Positions 20,344-35,619 of a stretch of 64,000 bases of DNA are shown one piece after another. Below the pieces are notes generated by a model. That model made no database searches. It saw only the letters and a list, made by a program, of their open reading frames with translations, and was not told the origin of the DNA. This stretch comes from a virus (taxonomy: Duplodnaviria > Caudoviricetes). The stretch's first letter is position 1; each line of letters starts with the position of its first letter. Made by a program: the position numbers and the translations under genes. Location of the stretch: the IMG/VR virus record IMGVR_UViG_3300020465_001196; one strand, written 5' to 3'.

Positions 20344-21072
20344 ATGAAGTGGACAACTTTAATACAAACAAAATACTATAATATAGATAAAACTGAATCA
20401 ATTGATCTTATTATACCTAGAACTGTTAAAGATGATCAACAAATTGCTGGTAGGCAGGTTGATACATTAGGTATATGGTGTTCAGGTGGTGCTGACTCAA
20501 GTGCTTTATTATATTTGCTTTGTAAAGAAATAAAAAAGAATAATTTAAGTATAAAAGTACAACCAATGACAGTTAGAAGACAACGTCCATGGAACCCTGT
20601 AAAAGCAACTCATGTTATTAATAAAATTACTGAAATTTGTGAAGCACAAGAAATTGTGTTACCTCATTTAATTTACTATCCTGACTTAAAAGATGAGCAT
20701 CAAACTGAATGGCAAGAATTTCAAGATAGAAATAAAGAAAATGAAGAAACAGGAGTGTGGGATGTTCTATATGATGGTATAACATCTAACCCACCAGAAG
20801 GGGCAATGCCTTATGACACAGATCAAAAAGATAGACGTGATCCAAATGTAGACCATGAATTGATTACTCCAGATGGATGTTCTCATAGACCATTTTTTAA
20901 TACAAATAAAAAATTTATTGCTGACATTTATAAGCAAGAAAATTTAATGAGTAATTTATTTCCTTTAACTTGGTCATGTGAAGGAACGTTTGAACAAACA
21001 AATGGTTACCTAACACCTTGTGAAAACTGTTGGTGGTGTCATGAAAGATATTGGGCATTCAATAGATATTAA
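20344..21072 (+). CDS. QueC-like PP-loop ATP pyrophosphatase
   Basis: CSGGADS; PF...K..I; TWSC...CENCWWCHER. Confidence 0.8.
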   Translation: MKWTTLIQTKYYNIDKTESIDLIIPRTVKDDQQIAGRQVDTLGIWCSGGADSSALLYLLCKEIKKNNLSIKVQPMTVRRQRPWNPVKATHVINKITEICEAQEIVLPHLIYYPDLKDEHQTEWQEFQDRNKENEETGVWDVLYDGITSNPPEGAMPYDTDQKDRRDPNVDHELITPDGCSHRPFFNTNKKFIADIYKQENLMSNLFPLTWSCEGTFEQTNGYLTPCENCWWCHERYWAFNRY

Positions 21073-22397
21073 TGTCAGAAATTATTGCAATCGATAACGA
21101 TATACAAAATCCTTATTCATTTGAAGTAACATGGGATTTAGGTTTACGATGTAATTTTGATTGTACTTACTGTCCTTCACACAGACATAACAACACATCA
21201 CCTCATGCAAGTTTAGAAACATTAATTAAAACAAGTAAGTTTGTTTTTGATTATAAAAAATTATTACAATCGTATATGACATATTCTCGTAAATGGAATA
21301 TTGGATTTACAGGAGGTGAACCAACTGCCAATCCAAACTTTTTAGCAATGTGTGAATACATACATGATCAAGGTGACCAAGATGTAGTTGTTGATGTAAC
21401 AACAAATGGAGCCATAGGAGAAAAATATTGTAAAAAATTAATTGATAATGTTGATAGTATTACTGTAAGTTATCACAGCGAAGTAGATCAAAAAACAAAA
21501 GATAGAGTTGTAGATAGAATTTATCAATTAAAAGAATCAAATATTAGACATAAAGTTAATTTAATGTTTCATGCTAAAGAAGAATACTTTAATGAATGTA
21601 TTGATTTAGTTGGAAAATTTACTAGAGATAATGTAAAGTTTGTACCAAGAATTATTGGAGAAAGTTATGATAATGACAAGTACAATCATAGATATACTCC
21701 AGAACAACATAAATGGTTTAGAGACTTTTGGGCAATTAGAAACAAAAAAGAAAACAATCAAAAGCAACCTAAAAAGATAGATGAAAATAATGATGCCGAA
21801 TATGAGTATACAGATGATCAAAAGAAAGTACAAGAAAAAAGATTAGCACAAAAGGCAAAAGATATTGCAGTAGGTGAAAGAATTAAAACCAAAGACCTAT
21901 CAAAACCTATAAAAGATTTACTACCAAAAAAACAAGAAGGTAGAAAAAGTTTAGGTAGACCTTGTTGTGGGCAAAGAACATTTTATACATTAACAGAAGA
22001 ACATTATACACAAAATAATAAAAAATTAGATACAGATAAATGGAATAAAAGTGTATTTGCTTGTTCAACAGAATATAAAGATTGGTCTTGTTTAATTAAT
22101 TGGAATTGGTTACATATTGAACAAGAATATGATAATATACTACATCATCAAACTTGTCGTGCAAATTTTGGTGGGGAACGTGGGCCTATTGGTAAGATAT
22201 CTGAAAGTGAAATAGTTTTAGAAAGATTAGAAAAACAATTAGCAACAGGTAAAATGCCTGTAATAACTTGCCCTAATAAAGTTTGCGGTTGTGGTTTATG
22301 TGTACAAAAATCAAAACATCATGATATGACAGAAGCAATGTTTAATAAAGCAGTAAAAGGTTTAACTCCTGTTATTGGAGCAAAACTAAATGGATAA
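21072..22397 (+). CDS. radical SAM enzyme with Cys-rich C-terminus
   Basis: CNFDCTYC, FTGGEP, C-terminal CPNKVCGCGLC. Confidence 0.9.
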   Translation: MSEIIAIDNDIQNPYSFEVTWDLGLRCNFDCTYCPSHRHNNTSPHASLETLIKTSKFVFDYKKLLQSYMTYSRKWNIGFTGGEPTANPNFLAMCEYIHDQGDQDVVVDVTTNGAIGEKYCKKLIDNVDSITVSYHSEVDQKTKDRVVDRIYQLKESNIRHKVNLMFHAKEEYFNECIDLVGKFTRDNVKFVPRIIGESYDNDKYNHRYTPEQHKWFRDFWAIRNKKENNQKQPKKIDENNDAEYEYTDDQKKVQEKRLAQKAKDIAVGERIKTKDLSKPIKDLLPKKQEGRKSLGRPCCGQRTFYTLTEEHYTQNNKKLDTDKWNKSVFACSTEYKDWSCLINWNWLHIEQEYDNILHHQTCRANFGGERGPIGKISESEIVLERLEKQLATGKMPVITCPNKVCGCGLCVQKSKHHDMTEAMFNKAVKGLTPVIGAKLNG

Positions 22398-23676
22398 AGA
22401 AGTAAAAAACTTTAATGAAAAGTATGGTAACACCTTCTGTATAAAACCTTTTTCAGAAGTAGCATCTACACCACTTGGTGCAATTAAGTTGTGCTGTTAC
22501 TCTGGAACAATTGATCCTAAAGAAGAATATTTCAGCAAAGATAAAACTATCAAACAAGTGTTTAACAACAACGCAGGATTGATACAAGCAAGAAAAGATT
22601 TACTTGCTGGTAAAAAAATAAAACAATGTCAAGGTTGTTGGAAAGACGAAGAAGCTGGAAACAAATCAATGAGGATAAATCACACACAATATTACGATGA
22701 GATGGATCCAGAGTTTGTGCAACAAGCAAAACAACAAGGCAAAGCAGAAGTTAAAAGTATAGACATAAAATTTGGTAACAAATGCAATTATGCCTGCGTT
22801 ATGTGTGCACCAGACAACAGCAGTTTGTGGGGAAAAGAAATACAAAAAAATCCAATAGACGTAGATTTATATCAAGGTGGCTTTAATAATTTTGTTCAAT
22901 TAGTTGATTACCCAGAACACAAATATGATGAGCTTTTAGAAATATCTAAAAGTATTAGAAGAGTGAAAAGCACTGGTGGTGAACCAATGTTGCTAGATGG
23001 ATTCAAAGGTTACATAAAAAAAATAGTAGACAAAGGATATGCCAAATACATGAACTTTAAAACTGTAACAAATGGTACAGTTGATTGTTCTGAATTACTA
23101 CCTTACATGAATGAGTTCAAAAGGTTTGAAATGGATTGGAGTGTTGATGGCACCGGCGAAGTTTATAATTATATTAGGTGGCCTGGCAACTTTAATAGGA
23201 TGAAAAGAATACACGAAAAATTAGCATCAGAAATTATCAACAACAATTATAAAAATATTGAAATTACTATGCACCCAACTATACAAGTTTTTAATCTACA
23301 TAATATTCCTGAAATAATACAATATGCAAAAGATCTACAGGTTGTTAATTTTGTAGATTTTGGATACATTTTTGATGAGCCAAGTTATTTAAACACTGGT
23401 GTATTTCCTGATAAAATGCTAGAAGATATTATTCAAGAAAACAATAAAAAAGTTGGTAAAATAGAAACATCAAACAATTTTAATCATTCATATGATAATC
23501 TTGTGTCGACTGTACGTAGAGATCAAAAATTATTTAATAAAAAGTACAACAAAAAAGAATTGTTTGATAAAACTAAAAGAATAGCAAAATGGTTTGATAA
23601 AAGTAGGAAACTAGATATTCACAATCACATATCAACATATAAAGAGCTTGAAAATTACTATCTACACCTACAATAA
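22390..23676 (+). CDS. N-terminal twitch-domain radical SAM enzyme
   Basis: FCIKPF...CC...CQGCW then CNYACVMC, TGGEP. Confidence 0.9.
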   Translation: MDKEVKNFNEKYGNTFCIKPFSEVASTPLGAIKLCCYSGTIDPKEEYFSKDKTIKQVFNNNAGLIQARKDLLAGKKIKQCQGCWKDEEAGNKSMRINHTQYYDEMDPEFVQQAKQQGKAEVKSIDIKFGNKCNYACVMCAPDNSSLWGKEIQKNPIDVDLYQGGFNNFVQLVDYPEHKYDELLEISKSIRRVKSTGGEPMLLDGFKGYIKKIVDKGYAKYMNFKTVTNGTVDCSELLPYMNEFKRFEMDWSVDGTGEVYNYIRWPGNFNRMKRIHEKLASEIINNNYKNIEITMHPTIQVFNLHNIPEIIQYAKDLQVVNFVDFGYIFDEPSYLNTGVFPDKMLEDIIQENNKKVGKIETSNNFNHSYDNLVSTVRRDQKLFNKKYNKKELFDKTKRIAKWFDKSRKLDIHNHISTYKELENYYLHLQ

Positions 23677-23973
23677 AACCCAATAGTTTTTGGCCTATAA
23701 TTTGTTCTATTACACCTCTAATAAACAAACAGCACTTTGGTACATAATACATCATAAAAGCGGACACACGGTGCTTAAAAGCGGATATAGACGGTGATTT
23801 AGATGTGTTTTAAGTGTCTGACAAGGGGGCAATGCCCCGCTTGTCTTTATTGCAATTTGAGTAAAATAATGTTAAGACCTTTATTGGAATCGGAAAACTA
23901 TCTGACGCGAGTCTTGTTTTCCCTTTGTGTGCATTATTTATAGAACTCTATATGCACATTAACTTGTAATGTT

Positions 23974-24047
23974 TGGTAGCACTACCGGGAATTGAACCTG
24001 GGTCTTAACCTCCTGAAAGTTACGTTCTACCATTGAACTATAGTGCA
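23974..24047 (-). tRNA. atypical tRNA, anticodon CAG (Leu codon) on a short-variable-arm body, CCA encoded
   Basis: TGCACTA TA GTTC-AATGGTA-GAAC G TAACT-TTCAGGA-GGTTA AGAC CCAGG-TTCAATT-CCCGG TAGTGCT A CCA. Confidence 0.8.
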
Positions 24048-24178
24048 TACAGTATTTAAAGGTATAGGCACCTATGTTAAAACTATAGAATTCTATATTA
24101 AATATAGACTTTTAAAAATATAAATGTTATAATAAACTGTAGATTAGATACACACAAACATACACAAAGGAGGATATT

Positions 24179-24406
24179 ATGTCTACAAATAAAAACGCAT
24201 ACGAAATCCGTGCTGACATCTTAGGTCAAGCTCAGGGATTAATTCACGAAAAATATAATAGAGCATATCAAACTTGGGAAATGTCTGTAACACGACATCC
24301 TGAAACAGGAGTTATACTTTCAACAAAAGATGCTCCAGTATTTCCTACTACTAAAGAAATACTTGATTGTGCTAATGAATTATATTCATTCGTAGATAAA
24401 AAATAA
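24179..24406 (+). CDS. conserved T4-like aquatic phage protein (NAYEIRADIL family)
   Basis: RBS AAGGAGG; terminator after. Confidence 0.8.
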   Translation: MSTNKNAYEIRADILGQAQGLIHEKYNRAYQTWEMSVTRHPETGVILSTKDAPVFPTTKEILDCANELYSFVDKK

Positions 24407-24493: not shown

Positions 24494-27400
24494 TTAAGTT
24501 AATGCTTTGTATTCAACAGTAACTATACCAGCACCACCTGTTGGAGTTGACGCCGCACCACCTGACTGTAAGTAAGCCATTGTGAATGTAGCACCACCTG
24601 CCGTAGCAGTTGCAAATGGAACATCAATTACGTATGTACCTGCTGTTTTAATATCAGCGTCAGCATTAGCTACGAAAGTAGTAGTACCGTCTGATAAAGT
24701 AACGTGATCAATTGAACCACCTGAGAAAGCAGTAGTTACGTGAACAGTCACTTTAGCAACATAGTAAGTTGTTGAACCTGCATTTGGCATAGAACCAATT
24801 GTAGTAGTTGTAGCACCTGAGGCGATCGCAGTTCTAATAGTTAGATCGTCTGTAGTAGTTACAACGTTAGCATTTACCCATGCTTTTGTAACAAGAGTAT
24901 CATCAGTAATAGTTAATGACTCATAGTTAGCTGGAACGTTAACAACACCATTACCTTTTGGAGAAAGTAATAAGTCGATGTGTGAATCACCACCTGTAGT
25001 TGAGATCGCTGGAGCATTTGAAGTAGCCGCGTTCGTGATTGTAACTTCGTTTACAGCTGAAGCTGTTCTTTCGAAAATTGCAATCTCGTTGTTAGAAGAA
25101 TCGTTAATTTTAACTTTACCTTCTGCAGAACCACCTGTACCACCTCTGATGATTACATCACCTGAAGCATTACCACCAGTACCGTTACCACCTTTGATAA
25201 CCGCATCACCAGCCGCGCCACTGTTAGCCGCACCACCAGATACTGTTAAGTCCATATTATCGTCACCCATTACAAGTGAGTTACCACCTGCCGCTTCAGA
25301 GATAACAACAACACCATCGCCTTGTCCTTTAAGAACTAAATCGATATCTGCTGAGTTGTCATCTGGATCTGTTGCAGTAAGAGTTACGTTAGAAGCCGTG
25401 TTAGTCATTACTAACTTGATGTTATCAGTTAATGTACCTGATACTTCAATAGCTGATTTACCAGCCGCGTCTCTAAGAGCTGATACATAGTCATATTGGT
25501 TAGCTGAACCAGTAGATCTTAAGTATTTGTTTACTGTTCCAACTGCCGCTAAACCTGTACCACCATTGCCTACTGGTAGTGTACCAGTAACATCAGCAGT
25601 CAAGTCAGCTTGTGCATATTGTAATGTACCGCCTGAAGATACTTTAAGAACAGTTGAGTTAGAACCTTTTGCTAATTCAGATACTGTACCGTCACCATCA
25701 GTTGTGATGATTGAACTTGCCGCGAAAGCAGAAACGTTTGTACCTAAACCACCATTAGCCGCCGCAACAGTACCAGATAAATCTGATGCCGATAAAGCAG
25801 AAGCTGAGAAGTTAGTTCCGTCTGATCTTAAGTATTGACCTGTTGAACCTACAGCGATTTCGCCACCGTCTGCTTCAACAAGTGAGTTGTTACCATGACC
25901 TGAGATAGATGCACCGAAGCCACCATATGCTCTGCCGATAACTGTACCATTCCAAGTACCAGCCGCAATTGTTCCAAAACGCATAGTTGCATCTGAAACA
26001 GAAGCTTGGTTAGCCGAACCAGTTTTGAACGTGAATGAATCTGTTGAATCATCAAAGTTCATGAATGCAAATTGGTTAGTGTTTGCTGTTGATGATCTTT
26101 TGATCTCAACACCACCTGCTAAACCAGTTTCTTGCGAAGTTGCACCACTGTTTACTTGAATGTATTTGTCTTCTGAAGTTACAGTTCCAACGTCTAATGT
26201 AATAGAGTTACCTGAAACTGTTAAGTCACCTGTTACTGCTAGGTCACCAGTGATAGCCATTGAACCATCAATAGTTGCTGTTGAACCTAATGTACCAGTT
26301 GAGAAAGTAGTAACACCAGTGATTGAACCACCAGTTAGTGCTACTGAACCTGCGTCCTGAGTAGCAATTGAACCTAAGCCCAATGATGTTCTAGCAGTTG
26401 CGCCTGACTCTGCAACCCAAGTTGAACCATTACCAACGATAATGTTACCATCACCTTTAGCCAATGCCGCAATTGCGTCTAAGTCTGCATCGTATGCCTG
26501 AACGTTAGTGCCAATAGTTAAACCTAATGACGCTCTAGCAGTTGCACCAGTTTCTAACACGAAGTTAGAACCGTCACCAACGATGATACCACCGTCTGTA
26601 ACAGCCAAACCAGCAACGTCTGCCAATTGTGCATCATAAGCCTGAACATCTGAACCAATTGCTAAACCTAAGTTAGATCTAGTTGAGTTAGAGTCAGTTA
26701 ATGTGATAGCACCTGTGTCTGCCAATGTTGCGTCACCTGACATAACATTGTCAATCCAAACTGAGTTACCTGTGTCATATAATAACATAGATCCGTCAGC
26801 TGGAGTAGTTAAAGTAACATCACCCATTTCAGCCAGTGTGTTTGAAGCCGCAACAGAATCATCTACATATTTTTTAGTTGATGCATCTGTATCAGCCGTT
26901 GGAGCACCCAAGCCAGTGATTTTTGCAGAAGACATTGCCGCACCGTTGAAAGTTGGCGTGTCACCTGTACCAAGACCTAATGAAGTTCTTGCTGTGTTAC
27001 CTGATTCAGCAACAAAGTTTGAGCCATCACCAACAATGATGTTACCATCTGATGGAGTTAAGCCCGCAACGTCAGCCAATTGTGCATCGTACGCCTGTAC
27101 ATCTGAACCAATAGCCAAACCTAAGTTTGTTCTTGCGTCAGAAGCCGTAGAAGCACCTGTACCACCGTGTGCAACAGCAACGTCAGTTGCCGCCCAAGTA
27201 CCAGTTGCAATAGTACCTAGTGTAGTAATTGATGTTTGACCTGCGTAAGTAGATTTAATTTTTAAAGTATCAGAATCGATCTCTAAAGTAGAATCATCAA
27301 CGTTAACACTCAGGTTGTTACCTGATTTTGCTAAACCGTCGCCTGCTGTGATCAAACCAGCACCAGAAAACTGAGTGAAAGTCAATGCAGTTGTACCAAC

Positions 27401-27910
27401 TGTGATAGAACCGTCATTTGTTAACACCCAACCAGTGTCTGCGTTTACAGTACCTTCTTCAACGAATGAGAAAGCACCAGGAGTTACTTCTGAGTTAGCA
27501 TCGTAGTCAGTTGCTCTGTCTGGAGCGCCTGATGCCTTAACAGTATATATACCGTTTTCAGAACCGTCTGCCTGGTTTTTGATTAATATTCTGTCACCCG
27601 TAGCAAGTGACACACCGTCAATGGTATCACCATTAACGAAGTCTGAAGCAAGTGTTCCTGCCGCAGTAGTTGCCGCTCTAACTGAATCTTTAACGTCAAG
27701 ACCAGCCTTAGTAGCATCTACATATGATTTAGATGTAGCATCATTGGCATTTGATGGAGTTGAAGCAACTCTAACATTTGACAATGTTGAACCATCTGTA
27801 GTAAATTTGAAGAAAGATGATGATGAATCATAAATTAATCTACCACCACTTTTACCAAATTGTACGTCAGAACCTATACCTGCTAGACCAAAGTTTTTAA
27901 CTGTAGCCAT
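24494..27910 (-). CDS. long virion fibre/structural protein with internal repeats
   Basis: 1138 aa, Gly/Ala/Thr/Ser-rich; DATSKSYVD and GDRILIKNQ...ENGIY motifs; three ~47-aa VQAYDAQL...IIVGDGSNFV...AR.SLGL repeats. Confidence 0.8.
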   Translation of the reverse strand: MATVKNFGLAGIGSDVQFGKSGGRLIYDSSSSFFKFTTDGSTLSNVRVASTPSNANDATSKSYVDATKAGLDVKDSVRAATTAAGTLASDFVNGDTIDGVSLATGDRILIKNQADGSENGIYTVKASGAPDRATDYDANSEVTPGAFSFVEEGTVNADTGWVLTNDGSITVGTTALTFTQFSGAGLITAGDGLAKSGNNLSVNVDDSTLEIDSDTLKIKSTYAGQTSITTLGTIATGTWAATDVAVAHGGTGASTASDARTNLGLAIGSDVQAYDAQLADVAGLTPSDGNIIVGDGSNFVAESGNTARTSLGLGTGDTPTFNGAAMSSAKITGLGAPTADTDASTKKYVDDSVAASNTLAEMGDVTLTTPADGSMLLYDTGNSVWIDNVMSGDATLADTGAITLTDSNSTRSNLGLAIGSDVQAYDAQLADVAGLAVTDGGIIVGDGSNFVLETGATARASLGLTIGTNVQAYDADLDAIAALAKGDGNIIVGNGSTWVAESGATARTSLGLGSIATQDAGSVALTGGSITGVTTFSTGTLGSTATIDGSMAITGDLAVTGDLTVSGNSITLDVGTVTSEDKYIQVNSGATSQETGLAGGVEIKRSSTANTNQFAFMNFDDSTDSFTFKTGSANQASVSDATMRFGTIAAGTWNGTVIGRAYGGFGASISGHGNNSLVEADGGEIAVGSTGQYLRSDGTNFSASALSASDLSGTVAAANGGLGTNVSAFAASSIITTDGDGTVSELAKGSNSTVLKVSSGGTLQYAQADLTADVTGTLPVGNGGTGLAAVGTVNKYLRSTGSANQYDYVSALRDAAGKSAIEVSGTLTDNIKLVMTNTASNVTLTATDPDDNSADIDLVLKGQGDGVVVISEAAGGNSLVMGDDNMDLTVSGGAANSGAAGDAVIKGGNGTGGNASGDVIIRGGTGGSAEGKVKINDSSNNEIAIFERTASAVNEVTITNAATSNAPAISTTGGDSHIDLLLSPKGNGVVNVPANYESLTITDDTLVTKAWVNANVVTTTDDLTIRTAIASGATTTTIGSMPNAGSTTYYVAKVTVHVTTAFSGGSIDHVTLSDGTTTFVANADADIKTAGTYVIDVPFATATAGGATFTMAYLQSGGAASTPTGGAGIVTVEYKALT

Positions 27911-28081
27911 TATATTATCTCCCTATATAAGCTATATTCAAATTTAGTTTAATTTCGGGAGGGTCTGCCTCATTGTTATTCTATTATCCACTTTCGTTCG
28001 GAGTGGTTAGTAATATTTATAATGTAATGATGAAAATTATAGTTGTATATTAACATATAACTTAATATTTAATTCAAAAGA

Positions 28082-28106
28082 AAAGGGCTTATATTTCTAT
28101 AAGCCC
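28082..28106 (-). terminator. rho-independent terminator
   Basis: GGGCTTATAGAAATATAAGCCC followed by TTTT on minus strand. Confidence 0.75.
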
Positions 28107-28125
28107 CCTCTCAATATTTTAGTTA

Positions 28126-28386
28126 TTATGCGATTGAACCCCAGTCGATTGTATCAACTGATGCTACTGCAATACCGCCCATGTCAAAACTGTTCGTAAG
28201 CATAGTACCTTGTACACCTGCTCCGTGAACGTGTTGTGGAAAGTTAGTGTTTCCTTCAGTTAAAATACCGAAGTTAGTAAAACCATTTCCTGGATCAAAA
28301 ACTTTTCTAACATTTGATTTGATTTCAAAGTTCTTGATTTTAACATTGTTTAATGCTTTAAGGTTAAAATATCTAATGTTTGCCAT
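28126..28386 (-). CDS. small putative virion protein
   Basis: Co-transcribed with fibre gene; C-terminal DWGSI motif. Confidence 0.65.
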   Translation of the reverse strand: MANIRYFNLKALNNVKIKNFEIKSNVRKVFDPGNGFTNFGILTEGNTNFPQHVHGAGVQGTMLTNSFDMGGIAVASVDTIDWGSIA

Positions 28387-28408
28387 TGTGATTCTCCTAT
28401 CCTTTAAA

Positions 28409-29761
28409 TTACATTAAGTTAATTAATACTTCGATAACACCTGTTTCGCCATCGAAATCTTCTAATGCTTTACCAATCATGTGACCACATTTTGCTTCGC
28501 CAGCCATAGCATGACCTGCCACGTCTGAAGTGCAAAGTAAATCACCTTTTCTAACTGTACCTGCAACTTTACAAGGAACTCTTCCTGTTAAAGCCACGTA
28601 TGGGTGTGTAGCGTCACTACCTGCTTCTGAGTTCATCATGTAAGCTGGAGCTGAAGATACAACACCTGCTACTTTATGATCATAACCTGTTGAAGACATA
28701 GTAATTTCTTTGTCGCCACCGAAGATAACAACTGTACCAGCATCATATTGTGCGTCTGATTCGTATCTCTCAGCCAAATCCGCGTATTGCGCCGATGTTG
28801 CTGTAGCAGTAATAGTACCTGCCGCAAAGTTACCTGAACCATCTCTAATTACAACTTTGTTTGCTGTATTAGCCGTAGCCGCATCATTCATTGATAATGA
28901 TTGGTAGTATGTTGTACCGTCTAAAGTTAATTCCCAAACATCTGATGTTTCGTTCCATCTGAAGTCAACGTTTGCAGAAGTACCTCTGTTTACTTCGATA
29001 CCTGCGTTGTCTGATGGTGCACCAGTTTCGTTTGAGTTTAACTCAATAATGTTATCAGCTAATTTGATTGTCTCAGTATTAACTGTTGTAGTTGTTCCTG
29101 ATACTGTTAAGTCACCAGATACAATAACGTTGTTTGAAAACGTTTTGTTTCCAGCGATTGTTTGTGTACCAGTTACCATCGCATATCTGGCATCCGCATA
29201 TGATCTAGGTATAGCTGATGAATCACCAACGTTACCTGTACCAACACCAAGGATGTCATTTGAATTTAATTGTAAGTCGTTATTGAAGTCGATTTCTGAA
29301 CCTGTTGATGAAATTGCTTTTCCATCAGTAAGTTGAACGTTACCTTTAAGTGCAATTGCACCTGTAGCCGGAGTTAATTCAACATCACCTGAACCTAATG
29401 CTTTAACGATAACATTTTCGTTAGTGTCACCTGATAATGTTACATCACCAGAATCAACACCCATCGCCGCTACACCATTAATGTAAAGTGTAGAAGGACC
29501 TACGTAAATATCACCCCACATAGCAGACGATGAACCTAAGTTATAAGTTACGTTTGCTGAAGGTATTAAGTGAGCACCAATTGAAGTAGATGCTACGTTT
29601 GATAAATCGATTTTCGCTAACTCGTGTCCGCCTGCTTGTGAACCGTCATGTACGTGAACTGAATTACGTGTAGTATTGACTGTTAACTCACCTGCTAAAC
29701 CAGTAAAAGAACCGTGCTCTGTTGCTGTTCCTCTACGTCTTTGAATTGCATAACTTGCCAT
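28409..29761 (-). CDS. tail fibre protein with Mtd_N-like N-terminus and chaperone-like C-terminus
   Basis: IQRRRGT...FTGLAGELTV...VHDG..AGGHEL; C-terminal ATSAQYADLAERY...VALTGRVPCKV...IGKALE. Confidence 0.85.
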   Translation of the reverse strand: MASYAIQRRRGTATEHGSFTGLAGELTVNTTRNSVHVHDGSQAGGHELAKIDLSNVASTSIGAHLIPSANVTYNLGSSSAMWGDIYVGPSTLYINGVAAMGVDSGDVTLSGDTNENVIVKALGSGDVELTPATGAIALKGNVQLTDGKAISSTGSEIDFNNDLQLNSNDILGVGTGNVGDSSAIPRSYADARYAMVTGTQTIAGNKTFSNNVIVSGDLTVSGTTTTVNTETIKLADNIIELNSNETGAPSDNAGIEVNRGTSANVDFRWNETSDVWELTLDGTTYYQSLSMNDAATANTANKVVIRDGSGNFAAGTITATATSAQYADLAERYESDAQYDAGTVVIFGGDKEITMSSTGYDHKVAGVVSSAPAYMMNSEAGSDATHPYVALTGRVPCKVAGTVRKGDLLCTSDVAGHAMAGEAKCGHMIGKALEDFDGETGVIEVLINLM

Positions 29762-35386: not shown

Positions 35387-35463
35387 TGGCCTGCCCGGGA
35401 AGATTCGAACTTCCGACCTTCAGTTCCGCAAACTGACGCTCTATCCAACTGAGCTACGGGCAG
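35387..35463 (-). tRNA. tRNA-Arg(GCG), CCA encoded
   Basis: CTGCCCG acceptor, A20, TCAGT-TTGCGGA-ACTGA, G73. Confidence 0.92.
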
Positions 35464-35467
35464 TTGT

Positions 35468-35541
35468 TGGCTGGGGTAGATGGATTCGAACCACCGATGT
35501 CGGTACCAAAAACCGATGCCTTACCACTTGGCGATACCCCA
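35468..35541 (-). tRNA. tRNA-Gln(TTG), CCA encoded
   Basis: TGGGGTA acceptor U1-A72, TCGGT-TTTTGGT-ACCGA. Confidence 0.93.
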
Positions 35542-35542
35542 A

Positions 35543-35619
35543 TGGTAGCAGAGGCTGGGATCGAACCAGCGACCTCCGGCTTATGAGTCCGGCGCTCTAA
35601 CCAACTGAGCTACTCTGCC
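35543..35619 (-). tRNA. tRNA with CAT anticodon, elongator Met more likely than Ile2
   Basis: GGCAGAG acceptor, CCGGA-CTCATAA-GCCGG; lacks initiator C1:A72 and lacks C4:G69/C5:G68 TilS-type pairs. Confidence 0.88.

Follow-up and report, generated by a model that had tools for sequence, protein, structure and literature searches.

A solitary phage tRNA gene with a CAG anticodon and a short variable loop: oddly built, and most likely an ordinary reader of CUG

Introduction

Why would a phage keep a transfer RNA (tRNA) gene, with a candidate promoter in front of it and a conserved flank behind it, for a codon that it hardly uses? The question is raised by a 64,000-nt stretch of DNA from a virus of the Caudoviricetes (IMG/VR record IMGVR_UViG_3300020465_001196), referred to below as the window, in which a 74-nt tRNA gene with the anticodon CAG lies on the minus strand at 23974-24047. 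An original prediction, made from the sequence alone, had noted the unusual body of this tRNA, here called tRNA(CAG), and proposed that it is a non-ribosomal aminoacyl donor for a nearby island of enzyme genes, a mis-decoding tRNA or a decoy against anticodon nucleases. We found that the observation was correct and that the interpretation overreached: tRNA(CAG) is most likely an oddly built but ordinary elongator that reads CUG. We give about an even chance to the full form of this explanation, namely that tRNA(CAG) is a working elongator of the phage, leucylated by the host's leucyl-tRNA synthetase (LeuRS), expressed from its own promoter in a unit with a trailer, and carrying mild mismatches that belong to one clade.

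The tRNA(CAG) gene

All four tRNA genes that ARAGORN called in the window lie on the minus strand, and one of them is the 74-nt tRNA with anticodon CAG, which reads CUG. The gene scored 60.5 bits against the Rfam family RF00005 (gathering score 29) over the full length, 1-71. Its parts were read from the sequence as follows.

23974-24047, minus strand: class I tRNA(CAG), whole gene (ARAGORN, Rfam, identity in nine assemblies, compensated changes)
Acceptor stem, minus strand: UGCACUA/UAGUGCU, with U1xU72
After the acceptor stem, minus strand: U8 A9; G26 follows the D arm
D arm, minus strand: GUUC-AAUGGUA-GAAC, 4-bp stem and 7-nt loop
Anticodon arm, minus strand: UAACU-UUCAGGA-GGUUA, with U31-G39
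Variable loop, minus strand: AGAC, 4 nt
T arm, minus strand: CCAGG-UUCAAUU-CCCGG, with A51xC63
3' end, minus strand: A73 and encoded CCA

All the structural features that had been listed for this gene were present, including the loop UUCAGGA, the 4-nt variable loop, the GUUC/GAAC D stem, A73 and CCA. The pairs U1xU72, A51xC63 and U31-G39 were confirmed as well, and the first two were flagged by the Rfam annotation line, which marked no non-standard pairs other than 1:72 and the third one in the T stem. The core was otherwise canonical (U33, the G36-G37 context, U8-A14, G18G19 and U54-A58). A class II tRNA-Leu has a long variable arm and a length of ~85-87 nt, and tRNA(CAG), with 74 nt and a 4-nt loop, failed this test; the claim of a body unlike that of bacterial tRNA-Leu was thus borne out. 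On the other hand, the Leu anticodon (NAG/NAA) and the A73 and G37 expected of readers of CUN were all found. The single-sequence fold did not differ from that of shuffled sequences (z = -0.03), so thermodynamic stability alone was uninformative for this tRNA.

Conservation and compensatory changes

The 74-nt sequence was recovered without any difference from nine independent assemblies (TARA, other ENA projects and Logan; loci L001, L002, L006, L019-L023, L028 and L160). Among the lineages with the identical tRNA, the neighboring radical-SAM protein was as low as 89% identical. Identity across nine assemblies means that the mismatches are not assembly errors, a possibility that the original prediction had itself raised. 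A metagenome scan gave a more distant lineage, L027, with 80-85% nucleotide identity over 17-30 kb of the window. Its tRNA differed at six positions, through U20->G, C48->U and the exchange of two anticodon-stem pairs on both sides (A28:U42->G:C and A29:U41->C:G), and no pair was broken. U1xU72, A51xC63, U31-G39 and the entire anticodon loop were unchanged. When six random substitutions were simulated, the pattern seen in L027 had P = 1.7e-4 and the absence of any broken pair had P = 0.03. Two compensated pairs with none broken make a pseudogene unlikely.

An IMG/VR scan with the D-arm pattern identified an ortholog in G001, a complete phage genome of 328,149 bp with terminal repeats that is syntenic with the window at ~81% identity over 45.6 kb and that we used as a proxy for whole-genome measures. 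The G001 tRNA was identical to that of the window at 63 of 74 positions and added two further compensated pairs, U4:A69 for A4:U69 and C27:G43 for U27:A43. Both mismatch sites were paired in G001, as G1-U72 and G51:C63. Because of this pairing in the ortholog, U1xU72 and A51xC63 appear from the alignments to be derived features of one clade and not part of the family design. The two mismatches were real and stable within the clade, as had been claimed, but they were not family-wide. Position 48 is C in the window, while U48 in L027 and G001 forms the A15-U48 pair. The CAG anticodon and its loop, the tertiary nucleotides and CCA were invariant across all lineages, and the promoter region, both copies of a palindrome described below and the trailer were also present in G001.

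The tRNA was present in the clade of the window, in L027 and in G001, and it was absent from contigs that carry the same 75-aa protein as the window behind a different upstream region (L159, L161 and L162). Homologs of the radical-SAM proteins at 57-83% identity and of the 75-aa protein at 64-87% were mostly without tRNA(CAG), and distant radical-SAM relatives lacked it while having other tRNA clusters. Its absence beside distant homologs indicates a patchy distribution rather than absence from whole genomes. Other searches were negative: none of 50,697 GenBank phages matched the 2-kb region by blastn; tRNA-specific exact patterns brought up no relative in IMG/VR, the D-arm pattern alone having yielded the ortholog; a protein-based IMG/VR scan with the radical-SAM neighbor found no relative; and a scan of the genome collection with the 3' half of tRNA(CAG) gave no match.

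We considered whether tRNA(CAG) could be a low-value gene that gathers mildly harmful mutations, including both mismatches, on its way to loss. Such a view fits the very low demand, a divergence faster than that of the promoter, the origin of the mismatches within one clade and the lack of the gene in some lineages that have retained the 75-aa gene. Across the lineages, however, there were four compensated pairs and zero disrupted ones, the anticodon loop, tertiary nucleotides and CCA did not vary, the entire transcription unit was conserved, and an RNA contig covers part of it. We therefore regard decay as very improbable.

Demand for a reader of CUG

The demand for decoding was as low as had been proposed. 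CTG accounted for 24-27 of about 16-17 thousand codons in the window, or 1.5 per 1000, and for 0.6 per 1000 genome-wide in G001, where 282 of the 332 open reading frames (ORFs) were without any CTG. In the window, the rarity of CUG was in line with a general avoidance of codons ending in G. A special avoidance of CUG was rejected, the G/A ratio of the CUN box being 0.14 against 0.07-0.22 in other boxes. A bldA-like switch acting through conserved rare CUG codons was also rejected, as only 2 of 17 CUG positions were conserved between relatives. Codon supply explained 14 of the 15 tRNAs of G001, among them an 87-nt class II tRNA-Leu(UAA) that serves UUA, the fourth most frequent codon; it clearly did not explain tRNA(CAG).

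A mismatch between the tRNAs and the codon use of a phage is the pattern that published work, both PMC11555353 and van den Berg et al. (cited in PMC11726456), explains by tRNA-targeting defences. tRNA(CAG) could accordingly be a spare that replaces, or a decoy that stands in for, a host tRNA-Leu(CAG) cleaved or inactivated by a host nuclease or by phage shut-off. With a body unlike that of bacterial tRNA-Leu, it might be missed by a nuclease that recognizes the host tRNA. We consider such a role unlikely, since there is no known nuclease, target or host to go with it, the anticodon loop, which is the usual site of escape mutations, is canonical, and a phage with only 57 CUG codons would gain little from having their reading restored.

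The amino acid and the short-armed relatives

Elimination and identity rules, and indirectly the alignment of CUG with leucine codons, point to leucine as the amino acid with which tRNA(CAG) is charged, at a probability that we put a little over one half. The LeuRS of E. coli needs A73, A15-U48, G18G19, A20a and the D/T elbow, whereas the anticodon and the long arm are dispensable, and minimal tRNAs without both arms are still charged (PMC9976931). LeuRS elements present in tRNA(CAG) were A73, A14, A15, G18G19 and U54-A58, with U48 in two of the three lineages; A20a was missing. On our reading of the published identity sets (PMC9976931), every anticodon-reading synthetase would be confronted with one or more wrong bases. 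At 24 of the 26 aligned positions with CTG in the window or in G001, the counterpart was a leucine codon, and no second amino acid came up repeatedly.

These alignments bear on the proposal of mis-decoding, by which a synthetase other than LeuRS would charge tRNA(CAG) and CUG, possibly commoner in host genes, would be mistranslated. In favor of it, the body does not look like that of a tRNA-Leu, the Met anticodon likewise has C34 and A35, the top of the acceptor resembles that of tRNA-Met, and the phage has very few CUG codons that could suffer. Natural mistranslating tRNAs also occur in Streptomyces. Still, CUG swapped freely with other leucine codons and no position indicated another amino acid, A73 fits leucine, and the anticodon-reading enzymes would meet the wrong bases noted above. 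Mis-decoding thus found no backing in the alignments and seems improbable.

The short-armed body was not in itself a sign of a special role, as class I bodies with Leu anticodons turned out to be common in phages and in Actinomycetota. A search of IMG/VR for a CAG anticodon loop followed by a T arm at class I distance matched 113 contigs, and 30 of the matches proved to be genuine genes for class I tRNA(CAG), 74-79 nt in length; those contigs also had class I tRNAs with CAA, UAG, GAG, AAG and UAA anticodons. A genome scan gave at least 31 class I tRNA(CAG) genes among the 120 loci listed, and nearly all of those listed came from Actinomycetota (Nonomuraea, Actinomadura, Streptosporangium, Nocardia and Kribbella). 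A73 was present in all 30 viral and 31 bacterial genes, and nearly all had a Leu-type D arm. Over all Leu anticodons, class I tRNAs of 74-79 nt were frequent in phage contigs of 31-67% GC (L030-L142) and in chromosomes of Actinomycetota (L163-L282); A73 was common to all of these and the Leu-type D arm to most. A literature search for class I tRNA-Leu in phages found no paper, and type I tRNA-Leu turned up only for Streptomyces coelicolor, where it is leucylated by the LeuRS of that organism (PMC6614811). The short variable loop, Leu anticodon and A73 that mark type I were all present in tRNA(CAG). Its D arm was common to tRNAs of at least 13 isotypes in IMG/VR and is therefore generic. No isotype stood out when the nearest neighbors were sought among 655 phage tRNAs; outside the family, the closest sequence, at 53 of 68 positions, was the tRNA-Thr(GGU) that a 595-kb phage carries, and it too has A51-C63.

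EF-Tu binding and the acceptor stem

With G:C at 51-63 as the reference, the T-stem rules of Uhlenbeck and colleagues assign a cost of +0.2 kcal/mol to A-C, compared with +1.1 for A:U, +1.0 for U:A and +0.8 for G-U, while C49:G65 and C50:G64 contribute 0.0 and -0.2 (PMC3239215). With pairs 49-65, 50-64 and 51-63 taken together, the predicted EF-Tu affinity of the T stem of tRNA(CAG) was -10.1 kcal/mol, in a model that omits 1:72 and takes its A-C value at 51-63 from one tRNA background only. The class means are -9.9 for Leu(CAG) (sigma 0.5), -10.0 to -10.4 for the other Leu classes, -9.1 for fMet and -8.9 for Gln (PMC3239215). A change of A51xC63 to A:U would weaken the predicted binding to -9.2 kcal/mol. 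The original prediction had suggested that a weak T stem allows the tRNA to evade EF-Tu, as in the staphylococcal spare tRNA-Gly, which lies at -9.5 against a class mean of -10.8 kcal/mol (PMC3239215). The predicted binding of tRNA(CAG) was not more than 1.3 kcal/mol weaker than its class mean in this model, which leaves out U1xU72, and evasion of that kind was not supported; by the thermodynamic model its T stem would be a normal EF-Tu binder of the Leu class.

We compared the two mismatches with a reference set of 653 distinct tRNAs, called by ARAGORN on fetched loci that were mostly from IMG/VR. The 1:72 pair was unpaired in 29 of the 653, nearly all of them either tRNA-Met, with 14 initiator-like cases of which six had U:U, or tRNA-Gln, with 11 cases of which eight had U:U. 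The 51:63 pair was unpaired in six, two of which had A-C, and the two features occurred together in none. Unpaired 1:72, G2:C71, C3:G70 and A73 are the determinants of methionyl-tRNA formyltransferase (PMC9976931). All four were found in tRNA(CAG), as U1xU72, G2:C71, C3:G70 and A73, and G4:C69 was absent. Among 651 phage tRNAs, the full combination occurred only in tRNA-Met (14 genes, six with U1xU72).

Such an acceptor raises the possibility of an initiator-like tRNA or a non-ribosomal donor, that is, a substrate of formyltransferase, poor for EF-Tu and peptidyl-tRNA hydrolase, that would serve CUG starts or donate its amino acid off the ribosome. Beyond the acceptor the likeness fails. In place of CAU, A11:U24 and three G:C pairs at 29-31:39-41, tRNA(CAG) has CAG, U11:A24 and A29:U41, C30:G40 and U31-G39, position 37 is G, the T stem predicts normal EF-Tu binding that is stronger than that of initiators, and the G001 ortholog pairs G1-U72. 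A Shine-Dalgarno sequence followed by a CTG start occurred nowhere in the window, and the 328-kb G001 had one weak candidate.

The enzymes that such a donor would need were also looked for. G001 had no match to tRNA-synt_1, Formyl_trans_N, Leu_Phe_trans or FemAB, all of which were matched in control genomes. Pfam scans of ~50 island proteins between 18 and 64 kb, ~18 of which were without a family hit so that the scan is not exhaustive, gave only radical-SAM enzymes, Asp/Asn hydroxylase-like and 2-oxoglutarate oxygenases, a desaturase, a carbamoyltransferase and a sugar dehydrogenase, together with SufBD, SufC-like, glutaredoxin, SET and QueC-like proteins. No aminoacyl-tRNA-dependent transferase was among these ~50. 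With no FemAB protein, leucyl/phenylalanyl-tRNA transferase, formyltransferase or class I synthetase in G001, and no transferase or formyltransferase among the ~50 island proteins, the proposal that tRNA(CAG) is an aminoacyl donor for the enzyme island was not supported, and an initiator-like or donor role looks quite unlikely overall.

Other phage tRNAs resemble initiators at the acceptor. Phage tRNA-Met genes with an initiator-like acceptor and U1xU72 in place of C1xA72 recurred, several with a length of 74 nt and a variable loop of 4 nt, and phage tRNA-Gln genes with U1xU72 recurred likewise (IMG/VR loci of these tRNA-Met and tRNA-Gln genes: L030, L046, L059, L068, L105, L120; L035, L059, L113, L117, L127, L130, L134). 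The only tRNA of the phage with a CAU anticodon (35543-35619 of the window; 98915-98991 of G001) has G1-U72, G2:C71, C3:G70 and an A31xG39 mismatch. It is identical between the window and its 81%-identical relative G001, and could be an elongator tRNA-Met, a tRNA-Ile2 (lysidine) or initiator-like.

Promoter, trailer and neighboring genes

The gene is flanked by a pair of radical-SAM genes (21072-23676) and by fibre-like genes (24494-29761), and the cluster of Arg, Gln and Met tRNA genes (35387-35619) is 11 kb away. Its solitary placement behind a TAAATA motif that ends at -6 was thereby confirmed. The two radical-SAM genes are on the opposite strand, end at 23676 and converge with the tRNA unit. 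A divergent gene for a 75-aa protein lies at 24179-24406, followed by the gene of a 1138-aa fibre-like protein and that of a protein with an Mtd_N domain. The 75-aa protein had no Pfam or PHROG family match, and 72%-identical homologs (L143-L150) lie directly after the gp23 major capsid gene in many marine T4-like contigs. The features of the tRNA unit were the following.

24084-24097, no strand assigned: 14-bp palindrome TATAGAATTCTATA, ~40 nt upstream of the tRNA, two exact sites in 64 kb
24053-24058, minus strand: TAAATA motif, candidate late-type promoter core, ending at -6 of the tRNA
23846-23973, minus strand: conserved 3' trailer, including a second hairpin, GGAAAAC...GUUUUCC, at 23892-23922
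23928-23958, minus strand: first trailer hairpin, UGUGCAU...AUGCACA, enclosing the second palindrome copy TATAGAACTCTATA at 23939-23952
23820-23845, no strand assigned: GC-rich hairpin, bidirectional terminator-like, called on the plus strand and conserved in all lineages

TAAATA occurred 21 times in the 80-nt windows upstream of ORFs against 4.3 expected, a five-fold enrichment, and before tRNA(CAG) it was kept in all lineages with a spacer of 5-6 nt. If it is a -10 element of the T4 late type, transcription would start at U1 or one base before it, leaving no leader or one of 1 nt. The palindrome TATAGAAYTCTATA had two exact copies in the 64 kb (0.16 expected), and the upstream copy sits in a nearly invariant 131-nt region that is shared with the divergent 75-aa gene. 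At the other end, the terminator-like hairpin at 23820-23845 would, as judged from its sequence, close both the tRNA unit and the convergent radical-SAM operon.

Relative to G001, identity was 92.5% in the 131 nt upstream, 85.1% in the tRNA, 85.0% from the 3' end of the tRNA to the end of the hairpin and 55.6% beyond it. L027 and L023 showed the same step, and across the lineages identity was 85-88% in the trailer and 53-72% beyond the terminator. In L027 and L023 the first trailer hairpin was kept by G-U pairs that work only on the tRNA-sense strand, and it folded at -9 to -11 kcal/mol in sense against -6 kcal/mol in antisense. The trailer had no Rfam family match and no covariation, the sequence being too conserved to show any. 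In the metatranscriptome run X15, a 168-nt contig with zero differences spanned 23842-24009, that is, the 3' half of the tRNA and the trailer. The radical-SAM operon had depth in 1 of 13 bins of the same run and the fibre gene had a depth of 104-186. The X15 data are assembled contigs, which give no strand, ends or level, and the contig is suggestive of transcription. Its end at 24009, two bases 3' of G37, would fit a stop of reverse transcription at 1-methylguanosine 37 (m1G37), although this is only a guess. Two diverged DNA contigs of run X9 break off at 23997, within the tRNA, and nothing is concluded from them; words of the locus also occur in the RNA runs X25-X27, which are not counted as evidence here.

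The trailer invites another explanation, in which the tRNA is a 5' module cut by enzymes of the RNase P and RNase Z type to release or stabilize a functional trailer RNA of ~155 nt. Analogues are known in the small RNAs from the 3' external transcribed spacers of E. coli tRNA operons and in RNAs C and D, the stable RNAs encoded in the tRNA cluster of T4. The trailer is conserved to the same degree as the tRNA and identity collapses past the terminator, its stem is maintained by pairs of the sense strand only, the X15 contig covers it, and codon demand for the tRNA is very low. A mere handle, however, would have no need of an invariant CAG anticodon and loop or of a compensated anticodon stem, and a trailer without Rfam match or covariation could equally be conserved as DNA that holds protein-binding sites. 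A role as handle alone is, in our judgement, a slim possibility.

The flanks of the gene drew attention of their own. The non-coding sequences on both sides (23820-23973 and 24048-24178; L351:430-800) were more conserved than most nearby coding DNA. Across lineages with an overall identity of ~81%, the 131 nt upstream reached 92-98% and the ~155-nt trailer 85-88%. Besides the two hairpins, this region contains CTATA/TATAG inverted repeats at high density, and it may represent a small RNA linked to the tRNA or several protein-binding sites. Just past the terminator, at 23755-23800, there are two copies of TAAAAGCGGA 20 nt apart, which are conserved as blocks within otherwise diverged sequence (alignment A4, columns 405-445).

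Weighing the elongator explanation

As we picture the elongator, host LeuRS would most probably charge tRNA(CAG) with leucine. Leucylation is plausible because the bacterial LeuRS enzymes studied so far ignore the anticodon, and that of E. coli dispenses with the long arm and needs A73 and the D/T elbow. The tRNA would belong to the loose and widespread group of short-armed Leu-anticodon tRNAs of phages and Actinomycetota, from which its generic 4-bp D arm sets it apart. A TAAATA-type promoter of its own would give a transcript of ~230 nt consisting of the tRNA and the conserved 3' trailer. U1xU72 and A51xC63 would be derived, mild changes of one clade, tolerated because A-C makes hardly any difference to EF-Tu binding and the tRNA is in very low demand. 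The benefit may be a kind of insurance for the ~50 CUG codons, scattered as they are, should the host be a poor reader of CUG. In all this the gene, its structure, the compensatory changes that go with its conservation and the low demand for its codon rest on what was seen, and the amino acid, use on the ribosome, the start of transcription and the benefit are inferred.

Several observations weigh against this explanation. CUG makes up only 57 of the 94,624 codons of G001, rank 57 of 61, and the other 14 tRNAs of that phage each read 8-68 codons per 1000, so that CUG lies more than tenfold below any of them. At 85% identity to G001, the tRNA has diverged further than its promoter, which is at 92.5%. 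It has no D arm of the Leu type (3-bp stem, CAAYNGGCAGA-like loop, A20a), such as most class I tRNAs with Leu anticodons keep, and the same phage family has a canonical class II tRNA-Leu(UAA) of 86-87 nt with the arm. E. coli LeuRS was without activity on the Streptomyces type I tRNA-Leu (PMC6614811), and charging by an unknown host enzyme is therefore not assured. Finally, unpaired 1:72 weakens EF-Tu binding in initiator tRNA (PMC3239215) and was nearly confined to tRNA-Met and tRNA-Gln in the reference set.

The near-absence of CUG from the phage genome and the conserved trailer are thus real loose ends, and the low demand is unexplained. Because CUG is nearly absent and yet gene, promoter and trailer are conserved as a unit, we keep a minority view in which the tRNA does not serve the phage's own decoding. 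It could then be a host-directed device (a nuclease-proof spare or decoy, or a formylatable leucine carrier that binds EF-Tu poorly) or the precursor of a tRNA plus a small RNA, with the tRNA as handle. Taken as a whole, such a role outside the phage's own decoding seems unlikely, though far from negligible.

Other tRNA-related loci

A few loci met in the searches are recorded here. On the minus strand of L025:1-220, a tRNA-Glu(UUC) that has G1-U72 and A73 precedes an incomplete tRNA copy without a 5' half, of which the T arm and 3' acceptor strand are identical to tRNA(CAG) over 28 nt, including A51-C63. The copy adjoins a GIY-YIG-like ORF and may point to recombination or mobility of tRNA genes. 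In a GC-rich metagenome contig (L024:5340-5420, L029:60-140), a T arm, 3' acceptor strand and CCA fit the search pattern with no recognizable 5' half, and ARAGORN called neither a tRNA nor a transfer-messenger RNA there. Relatives of the window carry a 94-nt tRNA with the anticodon UAU (Ile) (L011:3130-3223, L012:1436-1529, L028:1068-1161 and others), which has ~21 extra nt in the variable region, one non-standard anticodon-stem pair and an Rfam score of 56.8 bits. The direct terminal repeat of G001 (1-76 and 328075-328149) starts exactly with a tRNA-Ala(UGC) gene, which places the genome end at a tRNA gene.

Comparison with known systems

Phage tRNAs are usually explained by codon supply, and tRNA(CAG) breaks this rule despite selection on its structure. 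It is thereby a clean test case for the other roles now discussed for them, for example in regulation or in evading defences that target tRNAs. If it is simply a leucine tRNA in low demand, which we judge most likely, the result is a useful but ordinary annotation.

In the T4 phage, eight tRNAs and two stable RNAs form one cluster. tRNA(CAG) is like the T4-type genes in coming from a T4-related phage, in its encoded CCA and in the co-transcription of a tRNA with a non-tRNA RNA segment. The T4 tRNAs, however, fit codons that the phage uses often and the T4 tRNA-Leu is class II, whereas tRNA(CAG) stands alone and serves one of the rarest codons. The non-proteinogenic tRNA-Gly of staphylococci, donors for FemXAB, are similarly spare isoacceptors with an unusual T stem. 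They are weak outliers (-9.5 against -10.8), while tRNA(CAG) lies on its class mean (-10.1 against -9.9) (PMC3239215), and no Fem-type enzyme was found in G001 or among the ~50 island proteins. Initiator tRNA-fMet shares the unpaired 1:72, G2:C71, C3:G70 and A73, and the phage tRNA-Met with U1xU72 have the same acceptor top. tRNA(CAG) differs from the initiator in having CAG instead of CAU, U:A at 11:24, G37, no run of G:C pairs, a T stem that is predicted to be stronger and an ortholog with 1:72 paired.

Class I tRNA-Leu are also found in animal mitochondria. The human mt-tRNA-Leu(UUR), for example, is leucylated without a long arm through A73 and A14 and tolerates stem mismatches (PMC9976931). 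It is organellar, with a LeuRS and EF-Tu of its own, and the likeness to tRNA(CAG) is one without a demonstrated evolutionary link.

A further likeness in build is to the type I tRNA-Leu of Actinomycetota, for example the tRNA-Leu(CAA) of S. coelicolor (Fan et al. 2019, PMC6614811), together with the class I tRNA(CAG) of Nonomuraea, Actinomadura, Streptosporangium and many IMG/VR phages. These have a Leu anticodon, a length of 74-78 nt, a variable loop of 4-5 nt, A73, the UUCAGGA loop and a class II tRNA-Leu in the same genome, all as in our case. They differ in being fully paired and in their Leu-type D arm (3-bp stem, A14 A15 .. G18 G19. A20a), whereas tRNA(CAG), from an AT-rich marine phage, has a 4-bp D stem, a 7-nt loop, no A20a and two non-standard pairs. 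The class I Leu-anticodon tRNAs of phages are a wider and under-described group, and together with those of Actinomycetota they bear on how LeuRS recognizes its substrates and on the annotation of tRNAs in viral metagenomes.

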